This document shows positions 5,172 through 58,175 of a DNA stretch of 64,000 nucleotides, piece after piece. This DNA is from an uncultured Gammaproteobacteria bacterium (lineage in GTDB: Bacteria > Pseudomonadota > Gammaproteobacteria > Legionellales > Legionellaceae). The notes beneath the pieces were generated by a model. It searched no databases and was not told the DNA's origin. It worked only from the letters and a program-made list of their open reading frames with translations. The translations under genes and the position numbers were made by a program. The DNA lies in NCBI GenBank assembly GCA_963784615.1, contig CAWASG010000001.1, forward strand, positions 1,824,046 through 1,888,045, given 5' to 3'. Within the stretch, counting starts at the first letter, position 1, and every line of letters begins with the position of its first letter.

Positions 5172-5262
5172 GTAGGTTGGGTTGAGGCCCTAGGCCGAAG
5201 CCCAACATCTACACCAATGTCCGCCTGTTGGGCTTCAGCTTACCAGCCTCAACCCAACCTAC
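5172..5262. repeat. REP-like palindrome (family GTAGGTTGGGTTGAG...CTCAACCCAACCTAC) between atpE and atpB
   Basis: GTAGGTTGGGTTGAGGCCCTAGGCCGAAGCCCAAC ... GTTGGGCTTCAGCTTACCAGCCTCAACCCAACCTAC. Lies inside the atp operon. Confidence 0.9.
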
Positions 5263-5281
5263 AACTTCTGCGACCTAAACC

Positions 5282-6121
5282 CTAGTGATCCTCATGAGCC
5301 AGACTGAGATACACAATCGTCAGTACCATGAAGATAAACGCCTGTAATGTGATCACAAGAATATGGAAAATAGACCATCCAAGCGATAACAAGAACTGGG
5401 TAATACCTAACGTTGCTGTGCTGAGCATGGAAGACTCTGCTGTTGCATTCAACGTTAACAAAGCGATAAGAATAAAAATCAACTCCCCCGCATATAAATT
5501 ACCGAATAGCCGTAGTGCCAATGAAATTGGCTTAGCGACCAAGCCAACCAACTCAAGAAGCAAGTTGAACGGTATAAACCATGGGCTGTTAAAAGGCTGC
5601 AGCGTTAACTCTTTGATAAATGTCTTTGGACCTTTGATTTTGATGCTGTAAAACAAAATCAGCACAAAAACAGACAAAGACATCGCAAACGTTTGATTTA
5701 AATCATTCGTTGGCACAACTTTCAAATAATCCAGACCGGCTAATTTAGCTATATTGGGCAAAATGTCTACAGGCAAGATATCCATGAAATTCATCAGGAA
5801 TACCCAGATAAATACCGTTAGCGCCAATGGCCCTATTAATTGGTTTTTACCGTGGAAACAATCCTTTACCTGATTATCTGCAAACTGCAGCATTAATTCA
5901 GAAAAGTTTTGTAGTTTTCCTGGTACACCTGTTGTAAGGCGTCGCGTAGCTGAATATAACATCAGTACGGCAAACAATCCCAAAGCGAGCGCAATGAAAA
6001 CTGTATCTAAATTGATAGTCCAAAACCCGCCGTCCGACCCAAAACTCATGGTTTTAAGGTTCCAGGTTAGATACGTCAAGTGATGCTTGATGTAGTGTGT
6101 GCTTGATACCATTTCTGTCAC
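5282..6121 (-). CDS. atpB: ATP synthase Fo a subunit
   Basis: 279 aa polytopic membrane protein; a conserved Arg sits within the [11 protein letters not shown] motif. Confidence 0.9.
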
Positions 6122-6129
6122 TTTCTGAC

Positions 6130-6549
6130 CTATTTTCGTTTGTTATCAAAAATAACTGGGGCAAACCAAAACATCATTTGCGCCACAATAAACCCAACCA
6201 TAAAAGCCAATGGAACAATATTTAACGTTTTAAAAATCAGTGCGAATAGACTGAATGTCAACAGCATTTTTATCGCCTCGCCTTTATAAAAACTTTTAAC
6301 GATTTGCTGTGCTGCACATGCACCGTTGTATCTAAATGCTGTTTTCGCAAAATAGGCGGTTGGCAATATACTAACTAAGCCGCCTAAGAAAACGGATGCG
6401 CTGGCATGCAGGCCTGAGATGATTAACAAGGCGATTGACACCACCATGACCGTCAGCGATTGTGCTCGAAACAAACGACTAGCACCCTCAACACCTTGTT
6501 TATTTTTCACCGCCCACCTACATTTTTCGCGAATTATAAAGGAATCCAT
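6130..6549 (-). CDS. atpI: ATP synthase protein I
   Basis: Small hydrophobic protein immediately upstream of atpB. The track ORF N-terminus (MSESEAQHDG...) is the translation of a half-REP element, so the start was moved to the internal Met (MDSFIIRE...). Confidence 0.6.
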
Positions 6550-6626
6550 TAGAATAATCAAACATAATGGCCGTATTATTTCGAGGCTGTGGGCAGGATA
6601 GGTACATCGCTTTGCGGGCCCATCAT

Positions 6627-6658
6627 GTTGGGCTTCGCTCTCGCTCAACCCAACCTAC
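6627..6658. repeat. half REP (right arm only, GCGAGAGCGAAG subtype) upstream of atpI
   Basis: GTTGGGCTTCGCTCTCGCTCAACCCAACCTAC. Confidence 0.8.
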
Positions 6659-6668
6659 GTTATAGCCA

Positions 6669-55666: not shown

Positions 55667-56410
55667 TTCGTTGCTAGTGACGGTTCTACGGCGGGGAATT
55701 GCTAATCGACTACCTAGGCCCCTACAAAACCCACCCGATAATATAATGCCGAGTTCGTACAATAAACATAGCGGAATCGCTAGCGTTACTTGTGATAAAA
55801 CATCGGGTGGTGTGAGTAACATGCCGAGGATAAAGGCGGTGACTATCCAATAGGGGCGGGCTTTTTTCAATGTCGCGATGTTCATTATGCCGGTTTTGAC
55901 CAGTAATACACAGATCAATGGCACTTGAAAACACAGGCCGAATAACACCATCATTCGCAAGATAAACTCAATTGTGGTGGTAATTTCGGGCATAAACTGT
56001 ACGCCGAAGGGTACGGCGCTGACAAAAACGTGTAAGACAAAGGGTAATACGCCATAGAAGAAAAATAGGGCCCCCAGACAAAACAAGCCCGTGCTCAGAA
56101 CAATGGTGAAACCCAAGCCTCGACGCTCCTCTCGGTATAAGCCGGGCGCGGCAAATCGCCACCCATGAAATAAGGCCAGCGGTGTTGTTCCGAGTAACGC
56201 CAGATCGGCAGCGAGGGTTATCGGGATGAGTACCGGCGTGGTCATGTGGGTCGCTATCAAACTGTCTTTTTGTGGTAGCACCTGTAACAAGGGCGAGATG
56301 ATCACATGAAAGACGTCTGCAGAAAAGCTATAAAACAATAAAAATAACACGATGAACCACACCGCGATGATGATGCAGCGGCGACGTAATTCTAGAATAT
56401 GTTCAAGCAT
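55595..56410 (-). CDS. tatC: twin-arginine translocase subunit TatC (inverted relative to tatAB; the C-terminal about 23 aa are encoded by palindromic element D)
   Basis: 271 aa, six-TM TatC (LEHILELRRRCIIIAVWF...). It lies on the opposite strand, convergent with tatA-tatB. The tail ...VPSPVDGRRCPTGRMRVDQNMTT is a translation of the 55544..55666 palindrome. Confidence 0.85.
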   Translation of the reverse strand: MLEHILELRRRCIIIAVWFIVLFLLFYSFSADVFHVIISPLLQVLPQKDSLIATHMTTPVLIPITLAADLALLGTTPLALFHGWRFAAPGLYREERRGLGFTIVLSTGLFCLGALFFFYGVLPFVLHVFVSAVPFGVQFMPEITTTIEFILRMMVLFGLCFQVPLICVLLVKTGIMNIATLKKARPYWIVTAFILGMLLTPPDVLSQVTLAIPLCLLYELGIILSGGFCRGLGSRLAIPRRRTVTSNEVPSPVDGRRCPTGRMRVDQNMTT

Positions 56411-56431
56411 AACAGCAAACCTTGTGTTGAA

Positions 56432-56523
56432 GTAGGTTGGGTTGAGGCCCCAAGGCCGAAGCCCAACATCGATACCACGGAGCCGTTGTTGGGCTTCGGC
56501 CTTGGGGCCTCAACCCAACCTAC
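56432..56523. repeat. REP-like palindrome (GGCCCCAAGGCCGAAG subtype) upstream of tatC
   Basis: Full copy. Confidence 0.9.
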
Positions 56524-57308
56524 GCGATACTGTCTTGCACGCAACGAATAATCTCATCAATATCACCGTCCAATGGCAATACATGTGCGGAATGCTCCAG
56601 CCAGTGGATGTGGGCATTGGGTAGGCCGGCAAATTGGGCGGCGATATTGCTGGAGGGTACCACTTCGTCATAGCGACCGAGAAACACATCTGTTGGGCAC
56701 GTTGGGGGCTTGAATTGAAACGCGCGAATCAATGTTAAAATTTCGATGATTTGCCGCACCGGGAGTAGACGATAAGACAGCTCGGGATGGCCTTTTGTTA
56801 GCAGGTTGCCAGCACGATTGGGTATATTTCGCAGTCCGATGGCATGCAGAACACGGGCGGCGAATAACGTCAGGGGCACATTCACACAAACGGACAGTGC
56901 CGGCGCCAGTAGAAACAGATGATTCAAGCGAAACCGGCTGCTCAAATGACAGGCTAACAGCCCGCCTAATGATAGGCCCATCACATCAACCGCGCGATAT
57001 TCTTCAACTAACTGTTCGCAGTTTCGCTCCGCGCAATCAAGCCAATCCGCGGCGCGCGCCTGGGTAAAAGCGGCTACGCTATCACCATGCCCGGGAAGTG
57101 CTGGGCAAATGACGCGGTCGTACATGGTGAACGCCGGCAGCAGCCGGCGATACACGGCAGGGGATGATGAAAATCCATGTAACAATAATAAAGCCCGGTT
57201 CTGACCCTCGCCTTTGATGTCAATCGGCGCCAGCAACCCCGCATCCGCAGCTGCCAATGCGCCTACCCGCGCACCTCGGTGCATATAGAGAAAATCATCG
57301 TGTTTCAT
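56520..57308 (-). CDS. alpha/beta-hydrolase fold esterase/lipase
   Basis: 262 aa with LLLLHGFSSSP, a GLSLGG nucleophile elbow and a C-terminal HSAH. Confidence 0.75.
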   Translation of the reverse strand: MKHDDFLYMHRGARVGALAAADAGLLAPIDIKGEGQNRALLLLHGFSSSPAVYRRLLPAFTMYDRVICPALPGHGDSVAAFTQARAADWLDCAERNCEQLVEEYRAVDVMGLSLGGLLACHLSSRFRLNHLFLLAPALSVCVNVPLTLFAARVLHAIGLRNIPNRAGNLLTKGHPELSYRLLPVRQIIEILTLIRAFQFKPPTCPTDVFLGRYDEVVPSSNIAAQFAGLPNAHIHWLEHSAHVLPLDGDIDEIIRCVQDSIA

Positions 57309-57405
57309 GAGCCCGTCCCAATGATGAGTTTGATTTTTAGAGTATGCTTATTTTTGTACTATAATGAAAGGTAAGAACATCATTAATTTTGTAAGGAGAA
57401 TGATT

Positions 57406-57978
57406 ATGGTCCCTAATCCCAATGACGTCCCTGGTGCTCGTCCCCTAACCCCGTCTGCCGCTCCTGCTCCTGCTCCTGCTGCTGCCGCTCCTGCTGCTGC
57501 CACCACCGCTGCTGTCACCACCGCTGCTGCTGCCGCCGCTCCTGCTGCTGCCACCACCGCTGCTGTCACCACCGCTGCTGCTGCCGCCGCTCCTGCACCT
57601 CCCCTTACACCGCGAGAAAGATGGGATAAAATAAATAAGGCGGAGAGAGATGCAACAAAAAAAAACCCGGGTACTACTCCTGGCGATATATTAAATGATA
57701 TATTCAAGATGGCCCCGCATGCGGCAAAAAATGCTGTTGAGGCTGTCAAAGAGGCTCCGGGTAATATCATAGAGTCTATCCGAAATGCTCCGAAAAATGT
57801 AAAAAATGCTATTAATTCAGTCGCCACCAAAGTTAATTCGTCAGCTGCGAAAGTTAGTGCCGTGGCTGGTGCTATAAACAAGGCCAATGCCGCGCGTCGC
57901 CTTGCGAGCAATATGAAGCAGCCAGCGAATACCAGCATCAAACCACCAGGCGCAAGCCCTAAAGGTCCCCAACCTTGA
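57406..57978 (+). CDS. low-complexity Ala/Thr/Pro-repeat protein followed by a Lys/Asn/Ala-rich helical C-terminal half
   Basis: A TATAAT box at about 57360 is followed by AGGAG and an ATG at 57406. Two exact 17-aa repeats (APAAATTAAVTTAAAAA) are encoded by a 51-bp tandem DNA repeat. The opposite-strand ORF (57348..57941) is the GC-rich mirror and was rejected. Confidence 0.6.
   Translation: MVPNPNDVPGARPLTPSAAPAPAPAAAAPAAATTAAVTTAAAAAAPAAATTAAVTTAAAAAAPAPPLTPRERWDKINKAERDATKKNPGTTPGDILNDIFKMAPHAAKNAVEAVKEAPGNIIESIRNAPKNVKNAINSVATKVNSSAAKVSAVAGAINKANAARRLASNMKQPANTSIKPPGASPKGPQP
57486..57587 (+). repeat. 51-bp exact tandem duplication (GC-rich) within the Ala/Thr/Pro-rich gene
   Basis: GCTCCTGCTGCTGCCACCACCGCTGCTGTCACCACCGCTGCTGCTGCCGCC, two copies. 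Confidence 0.9.
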
Positions 57979-58108
57979 TGACACCCAAAATATTGAGGTT
58001 TGGGCGCATTTTTTAATGATAAATTCCTCGCGTCGATGCGGCGCGTAAACCGGTTGACGTACGGATATCGCTTGGTGATTTAGAGAGTCGCGTGCGTCAA
58101 CCAGATTT

Positions 58109-58175
58109 TGTTGGGCTTCGCTCTCGCTCAACCCAACCTACTCCGATTAACTCCCTTACTTAATGGCCAGCGAGG
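58109..58175. repeat. half REP plus inverted copy of the long-form leader
   Basis: GTTGGGCTTCGCTCTCGCTCAACCCAACCTAC followed by CTCCGATTAACTCCCTTACTTAATGGC (the reverse complement of the leader). Confidence 0.8.

Follow-up and report, generated by a model that had tools for sequence, protein, structure and literature searches.

What are the palindromes that recur at about 15 places in a 64,000-nucleotide stretch of the chromosome of a Legionella-like bacterium (Legionellales), and do they serve the genes beside which they lie? The stretch, referred to here as the window, surrounds the replication origin and represents the origin-proximal part of a chromosome of about 2.2 Mb. [quoted passage not shown] The elements are very probably a population of GTAG-tagged REPs, of the class served by REP-associated tyrosine transposases (RAYTs) of the Escherichia coli type. 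Most are arranged head to head, like REP doublets forming hairpins (REPINs) or bacterial interspersed mosaic elements (BIMEs), and they would be non-autonomous, spreading by means of a RAYT encoded elsewhere.

Copies, arms and doublets

When both strands of the window were searched for GTAGGTTGGGTTGAG with up to 2 mismatches, 25 matches were found, compared with 0.11 expected from shuffled sequences; the 3' partner CGAAGCCCAACA was found 21 times (0.32 expected). Twenty complete arms were extracted from about 15 loci lying between 5172 and 58181, comprising nine inverted doublets, one of them half-degenerate, and six single or collapsed arms. All of the loci are intergenic or overlap stop codons only. 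The doublet arms are 37-44 nt long and, in the best copies, 95-100% complementary, with loops of 9-37 nt. The loci are listed below, with arm types designated by letters.

5172-5262: mixed-arm doublet (GGCCCTAGGCC / GGCTGGTAAGCT) with a 20-nt loop in the atpB-atpE spacer; predicted RNA fold -66 kcal/mol
6627-6658, minus strand: single B-type arm (GCGAGAGC) that lies upstream of atpI and follows the LppC stop by 10 nt
8555-8638: perfect doublet, 100% complementary, with the private variant GGCTGGGAAGCC on both arms, in the divergent LppC/rsmI spacer
19922-19953, plus strand: mini REP hairpin GTAGGTTGGGTTGCATCTTTATGCAACCCAAC, a short form with an internal deletion, with tag and stem as elsewhere but a different loop
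27442-27543: perfect A/A doublet (27442-27526) in the prkA-yeaH spacer, with part of a third arm end after it (27527-27543)
30372-30410, plus strand: collapsed short form with an internal deletion, the GTAG of which provides the TAG stop of spoVR
38956-38970, minus strand: weak, degenerate arm fragment with 2 mismatches
40050-40195, plus strand: long form made up of a shortened leader (CGTAGGTTCACTGCC..TTAATCGGA), a B/A doublet (40074-40153) and an inverted leader (40154-40195)
46350-46535, plus strand: long form made up of a leader (46362-46387), a B/B' doublet with a 37-nt loop (46388-46488) and a remnant of the right outer repeat (..GTAACTTAATGGTAATGA)
48294-48440, plus strand: long form retaining the outer inverted repeat on either side (ACGTAGCATCACTGCCATTAAGTTAAG / CTTAACTTAATGGCAGCGATACGTAGC) of a half-degenerate doublet (48335-48430; B arm 48335-48366, right arm degenerate), beside tRNA-Leu
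49805-49887: A/A doublet lying between the convergent CSD and DUF2807 genes, with CCACCCTAC after it (49890-49899)
[quoted passage not shown]
54769-54887, plus strand: leader (ACGTAGGTTCACCGCCATCAAGTTTAGGAAATTAATCGGA) and B/A doublet (54809-54887) in the ubiB/tatA gap, ending 15 nt before the tatA ATG
56432-56523: C/C doublet with the private variant GGCCCCAAGGCC on both arms; its CTA at 56520-56522 reads, on the minus strand, as the TAG stop of a hydrolase gene
58110-58181, minus strand: single B arm (58110-58141) and inverted leader (58142-58181), just downstream of an IMPDH/GMP-reductase-like gene

The arms are 32-36 nt long and follow the plan GTTGGGT-TGA-(GC GAGA GC or GGC TGGTAA GCC)-GAA-GCCCAAC, with GTAG at the 5' start of 20/20 complete arms. 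In single-arm folds, which have energies of -9.1 and -6.5 kcal/mol (z-scores -4.6 and -3.2), the GTAG is unpaired. Behind it come an 8-bp stem, GTTGGGTT/AGCCCAAC, one of whose pairs is T·G, then TGA/GAA as an internal loop, and finally a small GC-closed hairpin whose stem is 4 bp (GGCT..AGCC) or 2 bp (GC..GC) long. These are the features of a GTAG-tagged REP, namely an unpaired 5' GTAG and an imperfect palindrome with a trinucleotide-separated GC/GC or GGC/GCC loop. In the doublets the GTAG tags are outermost and the two arms form a 37-bp hairpin; the A/A doublet at 27442 has a folding energy of -50.4 kcal/mol as DNA (z -16), and the energy of the doublet hairpin as RNA is -85.7 kcal/mol.

Two arm subtypes had been proposed, which proved too few: the extracted arms include at least five inner-loop variants (GGCTGGTAAGCC seven times; GGCTGGGAAGCC twice; GGCCCCAAGGCC twice, together with GGCCCTAGGCC and a duplicated variant; GCGAGAGC six times; GCGTTAGC once). 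Arms are identical between copies at different loci, and two rare variants, those at 8555 and 56432, are each confined to a single doublet, in which both arms carry them. The loop between the arms has the consensus AAAAYCRTC(C)AT in six doublets. Since it is conserved in either orientation, the unit that is copied appears to be the doublet including its spacer. The doublets thus share two properties with REPINs: an inverted REP pair with a short spacer forms a single long hairpin, and the shared loop and matched private variants identify doublet plus spacer as the replicating unit. Relative to the B arm, the conserved loop points in opposite directions in the two B/A doublets (40074 and 54809), and therefore arm exchange or loop flipping has occurred. 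The original prediction that such hybrids show recombination between subtypes was too strong, since doublets with unlike arms look like the ordinary Y/Z heterodimers of BIMEs. No consistent target-site duplications beyond chance were found flanking the doublets.

A leader of about 40 nt, ACGTAG(GT/CA)TCACYGCCATTAAGTTAAGGGAAATAATCGGA, adjoins B-type arms at five places (46369, 48316 and 54791, and inverted at 40168 and 58143); it had been noticed at three. The sole B arm without a leader is that at 6627. At 48294-48440 a leader on one side and its inverted copy on the other enclose the doublet as outer inverted repeats (48301-48325 / 48408-48432). Partial outer repeats surround the 40074 and 46388 doublets; both are intact at one long form only. 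The long forms would be the same doublet nested in an outer inverted repeat of 27-40 bp. An ORF (open reading frame) of 461 aa without Pfam or NCBIfam match (46842-48227, minus strand) lies between two long forms of the same orientation and adjoins tRNA-Leu; upstream of the DUF2520 gene, relatives carry different genes, and 46540-48290 may be a small acquired island.

A REP class found in several phyla, and its RAYTs

The tag-plus-stem 15-mer was sought in one genome per species (596 Gb in all), and at least 119 loci were found. The matches listed include Cyanobacteria, Desulfobacterota, alpha-, beta- and gamma-Proteobacteria, Chloroflexota and Poribacteria. About 1,100 random matches to a 15-mer would be expected in 596 Gb. 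A chance origin of the cross-phylum matches was nevertheless rejected, because 84% of those sampled carry the complementary partner: CCCAAC lies within 45 nt in 130 of the 155 motif matches listed, as against about 0.5% by chance. By sequence, the exact 15-mer appears to be conserved unusually widely, from Cyanobacteria to Proteobacteria, Chloroflexota and Poribacteria.

RAYT sequence was present in at least three loci among the matches listed. In two of these the gene is flanked by the REP with GTAG outward; the gene is intact in L074 (Nostoc) and has an in-frame stop codon in L037. In the third, L027, what is left is the C-terminal part of a RAYT, about 1.3 kb away from the REP. The Nostoc protein scores 209 bits on the NCBIfam model NF047646 (REP-associated tyrosine transposase) and matches PDB 4ER8, the E. 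coli TnpA-REP, with E=4e-43. A metagenome scan for RAYTs gave 80 loci, whose flanks were binned by identity of the RAYT to the Nostoc enzyme. Where identity was at least 59%, GTAGGTTGGG was found in 24/26 upstream and 24/31 downstream flanks; below 59%, it was found in 11/41 upstream and 10/41 downstream flanks. The remaining metagenomic RAYT loci had the same architecture with other stems (GGGCGGG, GGGTGCG, GGATGCGG, GGCTGGG, GGGTGGG and GGCCGGA). GTTGGG therefore represents a single specificity class within the family of E. coli-type RAYTs.

The closest named relative of the window elements is the REP of Coxiella burnetii, GTAGGTTGGGCTGAGCTTGCGAAGCCCAAC, which was listed together with a RAYT gene (Nunvar 2010, PMC2817692). 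A nearly identical core, GTAGGTTGGG[C/T]TGAGC..GCGAAGCCCAAC, occurs in the window, and both hosts are Legionellales. The B-type arm GTAGGTTGGGTTGAGCGAGAGCGAAGCCCAAC differs from the Coxiella sequence by one stem base and a 2-4-nt loop; other loop variants are also present, GGC..GCC types being dominant in the window, and the density is lower in Coxiella (78 in 2 Mb, compared with about 15 loci in 64 kb here). In Di Nocera 2013 (PMC3733652), the GTAG-3 group, which includes E. coli and C. burnetii elements, is described as having unpaired trinucleotides between the stem and GC/GC- or GGC/GCC-ended loops, and GTAG REPs are said to form head-to-head dimers commonly and to lie at gene ends in about 10% of copies. 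The arms and doublets of the window fit this text description of GTAG-3. A GTAG-15-like assignment can likewise be suggested, from the description in the same text, for the cyanobacterial copies (Nostoc, Anabaena, Microcoleus, Okeania and others), which share the tag and stem, GTAG-GTTGGGTT...AACCCAAC, but have a loop, GAGGAACGA, without an inner hairpin and an A-T pair instead of T·G/G-C at the seventh stem position. Some cyanobacterial copies have a loop expanded by 20-30 nt (for example GAGGAACGTTCGCGTAGCGTCCGCTTCGGATAACCCAAC), and in others the arm breaks off after GAGGAA(C/T)G, where a longer stretch of foreign sequence follows. Such copies, seen in loci from other phyla, L018, L029, L035, L053, L096, L047, L070, L072 and L119, suggest that other elements insert into the REP loop.

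With the REPs and BIMEs of E. coli the window elements share the 5' GTAG, the bulged imperfect palindrome, the GC-closed inner loop and the inverted pairing of unlike REP types, and where the window REP class flanks RAYTs, in other genomes, these enzymes are plainly homologous to TnpA-REP, an enzyme that requires GTAG and the stem bulge and acts on single-stranded REP (PMC8266576). They differ in the stem (GCCGGAT/ATCCGGC in E. coli, GTTGGG/CCCAAC here); and whereas E. coli BIMEs have defined linker motifs, the window doublets are near-perfect 37-bp hairpins with short loops. The REPINs of Pseudomonas fluorescens (Bertels and Rainey 2011, PMC3116915) likewise consist of two inverted REPs and a spacer as the replicating unit, with matched arm changes, and are likewise non-autonomous and RAYT-associated. 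They belong with group-3 RAYTs and different REPs, and their single-copy RAYT was shown in the same genome, whereas none lies within the 64-kb window. A literature search for the exact motif string returned unrelated primer matches only, and a plasmid database search with a long form returned one weak, uninformative match to Methylomonas.

These comparisons point to a plausible mode of spread. The arm architecture is one that group-2 (E. coli-type) RAYT/TnpA-REP proteins recognise in the form of folded single-stranded DNA. Most likely one RAYT encoded elsewhere in the genome would cleave and rejoin the single-stranded hairpin, and whole doublets would spread into intergenic slots, often directly after stop codons.

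Contacts with genes, orthologous sites and the alternatives

Pfam scans of the window ORFs identified the atp operon, LppC, rsmI, mnmE, yidC, dnaA-dnaN-recF, prkA-yeaH-spoVR, moxR-DUF58 with bat genes, ubiE-ubiB and tatAB. The sign of the GC skew flips near dnaA. The best named relatives of three window proteins are from Legionella (YeaH, 75-78%; AtpB, 78-80%; the DUF2520 protein, 46-49%). Copies had been placed inside the operons atpB/atpE, prkA/yeaH, moxR/DUF58 and ubiB/tatA, and all four positions were confirmed. Copies also occupy divergent spacers, where promoter regions lie (8555, 51120, 48335), and convergent as well as co-directional ones. Three genes end in a TAG stop codon that belongs to the GTAG of an element. 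Two of these were as predicted, spoVR (TAG 30373-30375, from a REP arm) and moxR (TAG 40052-40054, from a long-form leader); the third is the hydrolase gene (56520-57308, minus strand; stop at 56520-56522), again from a REP arm. Where lengths were compared, the proteins are essentially unaltered (spoVR 507/507 aa, hydrolase 262/263 aa). In a relative at 91% identity (L120) the REP is absent and the equally long spoVR ends in a TAA of its own; thus spoVR has not been extended by the element. The elements do generate false ORF starts and extensions. Starts called by the ORF finder lie inside the repeats for atpE, atpI, DUF58, DUF1841 and a peptide upstream of tatA, and they are artefacts, as the Pfam matches start well downstream. 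The spurious peptide MSESEAQ...GLRLTSLNPTY, reported as recurring, is present at the 54809 copy and was seen only there, once.

We compared eight sites with syntenic Logan contigs of relatives at 83-97% protein identity. The same element was found at the orthologous site in none of the eight; the sites were empty or held another palindrome:

prkA-yeaH: 162 bp with a doublet in the window; 18 bp and empty in the 91% relative (L120, L121); a different palindrome in the 87% relative (L122)
DUF2807-DUF1841: about 330 bp extra in the window (unrelated MITE plus REP), absent in L124
CSD-DUF2807: GTTGGG doublet followed by CCACCCTAC in the window; a different GTAG REP, GTAGGGTGGG...CCACCCTAC, in L124 (83%)
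atpB-atpE: GTTGGG doublet in the window; CCTTGGT/ACCAAGG GTAG doublet with a GAGCGTTAGCG loop in L209 (97%); other palindromes in L206 (94%) and L210 (92%); empty in L207 (88%) and L208 (87%)

The atpB/atpE spacer has five different states among six relatives. The palindromes that fill the doublet slots in relatives (L122 9830-10000, L206 1334-1436, L210 1369-1495) are unrelated to the window elements; that in the L122 prkA/yeaH slot is GTCGTCATCCTGAAC...GTTCAGGATGACG. The CCACCCTAC at 49890-49899 of the window, judged by the L124 site, is probably a relic of a different GTAG REP, and this one relic was the only trace of another REP stem class in the window. The lack of positional conservation argues against maintained regulators and favours selfish or near-neutral spread into permissive slots; such sequence comparisons favour a recent arrival of the elements.

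Some observations weigh against a REP population mobilised by a RAYT. No RAYT or other Y1 transposase was found in the 64-kb window by HUH/Y motif regular expressions, tblastn or Pfam. The empty sites could be deletions in the relatives rather than insertions in the window, and the prkA/yeaH insert has 7-12 nt of microhomology at its flanks, although direct repeats are not general among the copies. The Logan contigs end at repeats (L123 stops inside the REP at 49805), which biases the choice of comparable relatives. Finally, the long forms with their outer repeats hint at a further layer, of MITE type, beyond the REP.

This last point bears on one alternative, according to which all the elements, or at any rate the long ones, are classical MITEs that descend from an insertion sequence (IS) of the DDE type and move by cut-and-paste, with the REP as passenger or target, as was proposed for QMITE2. 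QMITE2 has terminal inverted repeats, 7-11-bp direct repeats and a 5' extension of about 40 nt in full-size copies; its small copies are plain REPs. QMITE2 overlaps the 3' ends of ORFs by 1-10 bp and is a target of IS1111 (Wachter 2018, PMC5896051). By description the window is similar, with full-size forms (outer repeat and leader of about 40 nt) and small REP-only forms, and in both systems the last few bases of upstream genes are overlapped. Inverted repeats of 25-27 bp bound the form at 48294-48440 and are partial at 40050-40195 and 46350-46535, and the leader always stands beside a B-type arm. The two outer repeats, however, are intact in that one form only, and the short doublets, with RAYT-type GTAG at both ends, outnumber the long forms. 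Target-site duplications do not exceed chance at the doublets, and none was seen by eye at the complete long form; direct repeats of 7-11 bp at the window long forms did not exceed chance either, a weak negative given the uncertain boundaries of these forms. No IS1111 copy lies inside any window element, no IS-type domain was found among about 50 window ORFs scanned against Pfam, and the window holds no transposase of any kind. We regard a MITE origin as improbable.

Equally low is the probability that the copies are host cis-regulatory RNA elements (stabilisers, polarity attenuators or processing sites) selected at their intra-operon positions. Four copies do lie between co-transcribed genes, the predicted RNA hairpins are very stable (-51 to -86 kcal/mol), the T·G pair of the stem favours the GTAG strand or RNA, and in a preprint (bioRxiv 10.64898/2026.03.23.713779) E. 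coli REPs are reported as regulators in 3' untranslated regions. Against this stand the turnover at orthologous sites (five states at atpB/atpE; 18 bp at prkA/yeaH in the 91% relative), the copies in divergent and convergent spacers, and the lack of both a T-run after the hairpin and an enrichment of terminator-like sites. Intrinsic terminators in particular were rejected, as none of the complete doublets in the window is followed by a T-run and terminator-like sites between 39 and 58.5 kb number 25, with 24 expected. Effects on mRNA remain compatible with a mobile REP population as a possible by-product of its copies: if transcribed, a doublet would form a perfect RNA duplex of 37-39 bp, a likely substrate of RNase III or block to exonucleases, and this would be a secondary effect.

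The replacements among relatives raise a further idea, which we think doubtful though worth stating: intergenic slots of this Legionellales lineage may be repeatedly re-occupied by REP doublets that keep the architecture and loop while the stem specificity changes. Examples would be GTTGGG/CCCAAC versus CCTTGGT/ACCAAGG at atpB-atpE (97% relative) and the GGGTGGG/CCCACCC element at CSD-DUF2807 in the 83% relative. The earlier suggestion that the copies are a substrate for rearrangements has anecdotal support, in that gene order ceases to match that of relatives at the REP following spoVR, and again around the tat segment with its REP borders. In that segment, tatA (54903-55064) and tatB (55061-55285) lie on the plus strand and tatC (55595-56410) lies convergently on the minus strand. 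The tatC part is flanked by the REP at 56432 and a palindrome at 55545-55663, which encodes the last 50 or so residues of the tatC ORF. No tat genes follow ubiB in L124 (83%), and a palindrome-bounded inversion or insertion is possible.

Other repeats of the window, and implications

Other repeats are present in the window. A MITE of 215 bp occurs in two copies, 98% identical (34019-34233 and 50886-51100), with terminal inverted repeats of 33-35 bp (AACTAAGTAC...GTACTAAGTT); related ends were found at 13563 and 62374, and the copy at 50886 is absent from the orthologous L124 site. A palindromic unit of 58 nt (GCGTCGTTGCGAGCGAAGCGCGGCAATCCAGAGT...) is present in three copies that are 100% identical (34079-34136, 44525-44582 and 50946-51003), two nested in the 215-bp MITE and one solo in the 5' part of the batD ORF (44365-46332), upstream of the BatD domain. 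A palindrome family with 44-nt arms (TTAAACCGGAATCCGAGCCACGACCGTTAGGGAGTGGAGCAGTT) has two members, 83% alike, at 38757-38922 and 62216-62381, and a related motif (..TAACGGTCGCGGCTCGGATACC..) lies near position 1200 of L122. The atpA-atpG spacer, 288 bp in the window compared with 57 bp in L207 and 92 bp in L208, is filled by a 180-bp palindrome (1921-2100; 77-nt arms, 90% complementary), a second palindromic insertion within the atp operon. Short perfect palindromes of one type (TTGGACAGAACAGCATGA/TCATGCTGTTCTGTCCAA, TTTGAGCAAAAGCGCATGC and TTTGTACAGTGCCGCATGA/TCATGCGGCACTGTACAAA) are located at 25271-25377 and 59369-59416, on the upstream side of prkA and where the minus-strand PIN-PhoH gene (59416-60819) has its 5' end; they may be operator-like sites. 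Tandem coding repeats of 15 bp (43895-44269; about 25 units) lie within the gene for a TPR protein (43484-44377), and a GC-rich block of 15-bp repeats (57442-57603) lies in an ORF pair without family match (57348-57978). In an Rfam scan of the window the sole match was tRNA-Leu (48489-48574), and no RNA family fitted the REP repeats.

The elements of the window are not a new kind of system; they extend to a Legionella-like host a REP class that was first listed for Coxiella. As repeats they break short-read assemblies. If slots are indeed re-occupied, REPINs would insert preferentially into older REPs, or replace them, and the specificity of the REP-RAYT pair would switch within a genus while the sites stayed fixed. 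The orthologous sites provide clean examples of presence, absence and replacement among close relatives, and these are material for testing how REPINs choose their targets.

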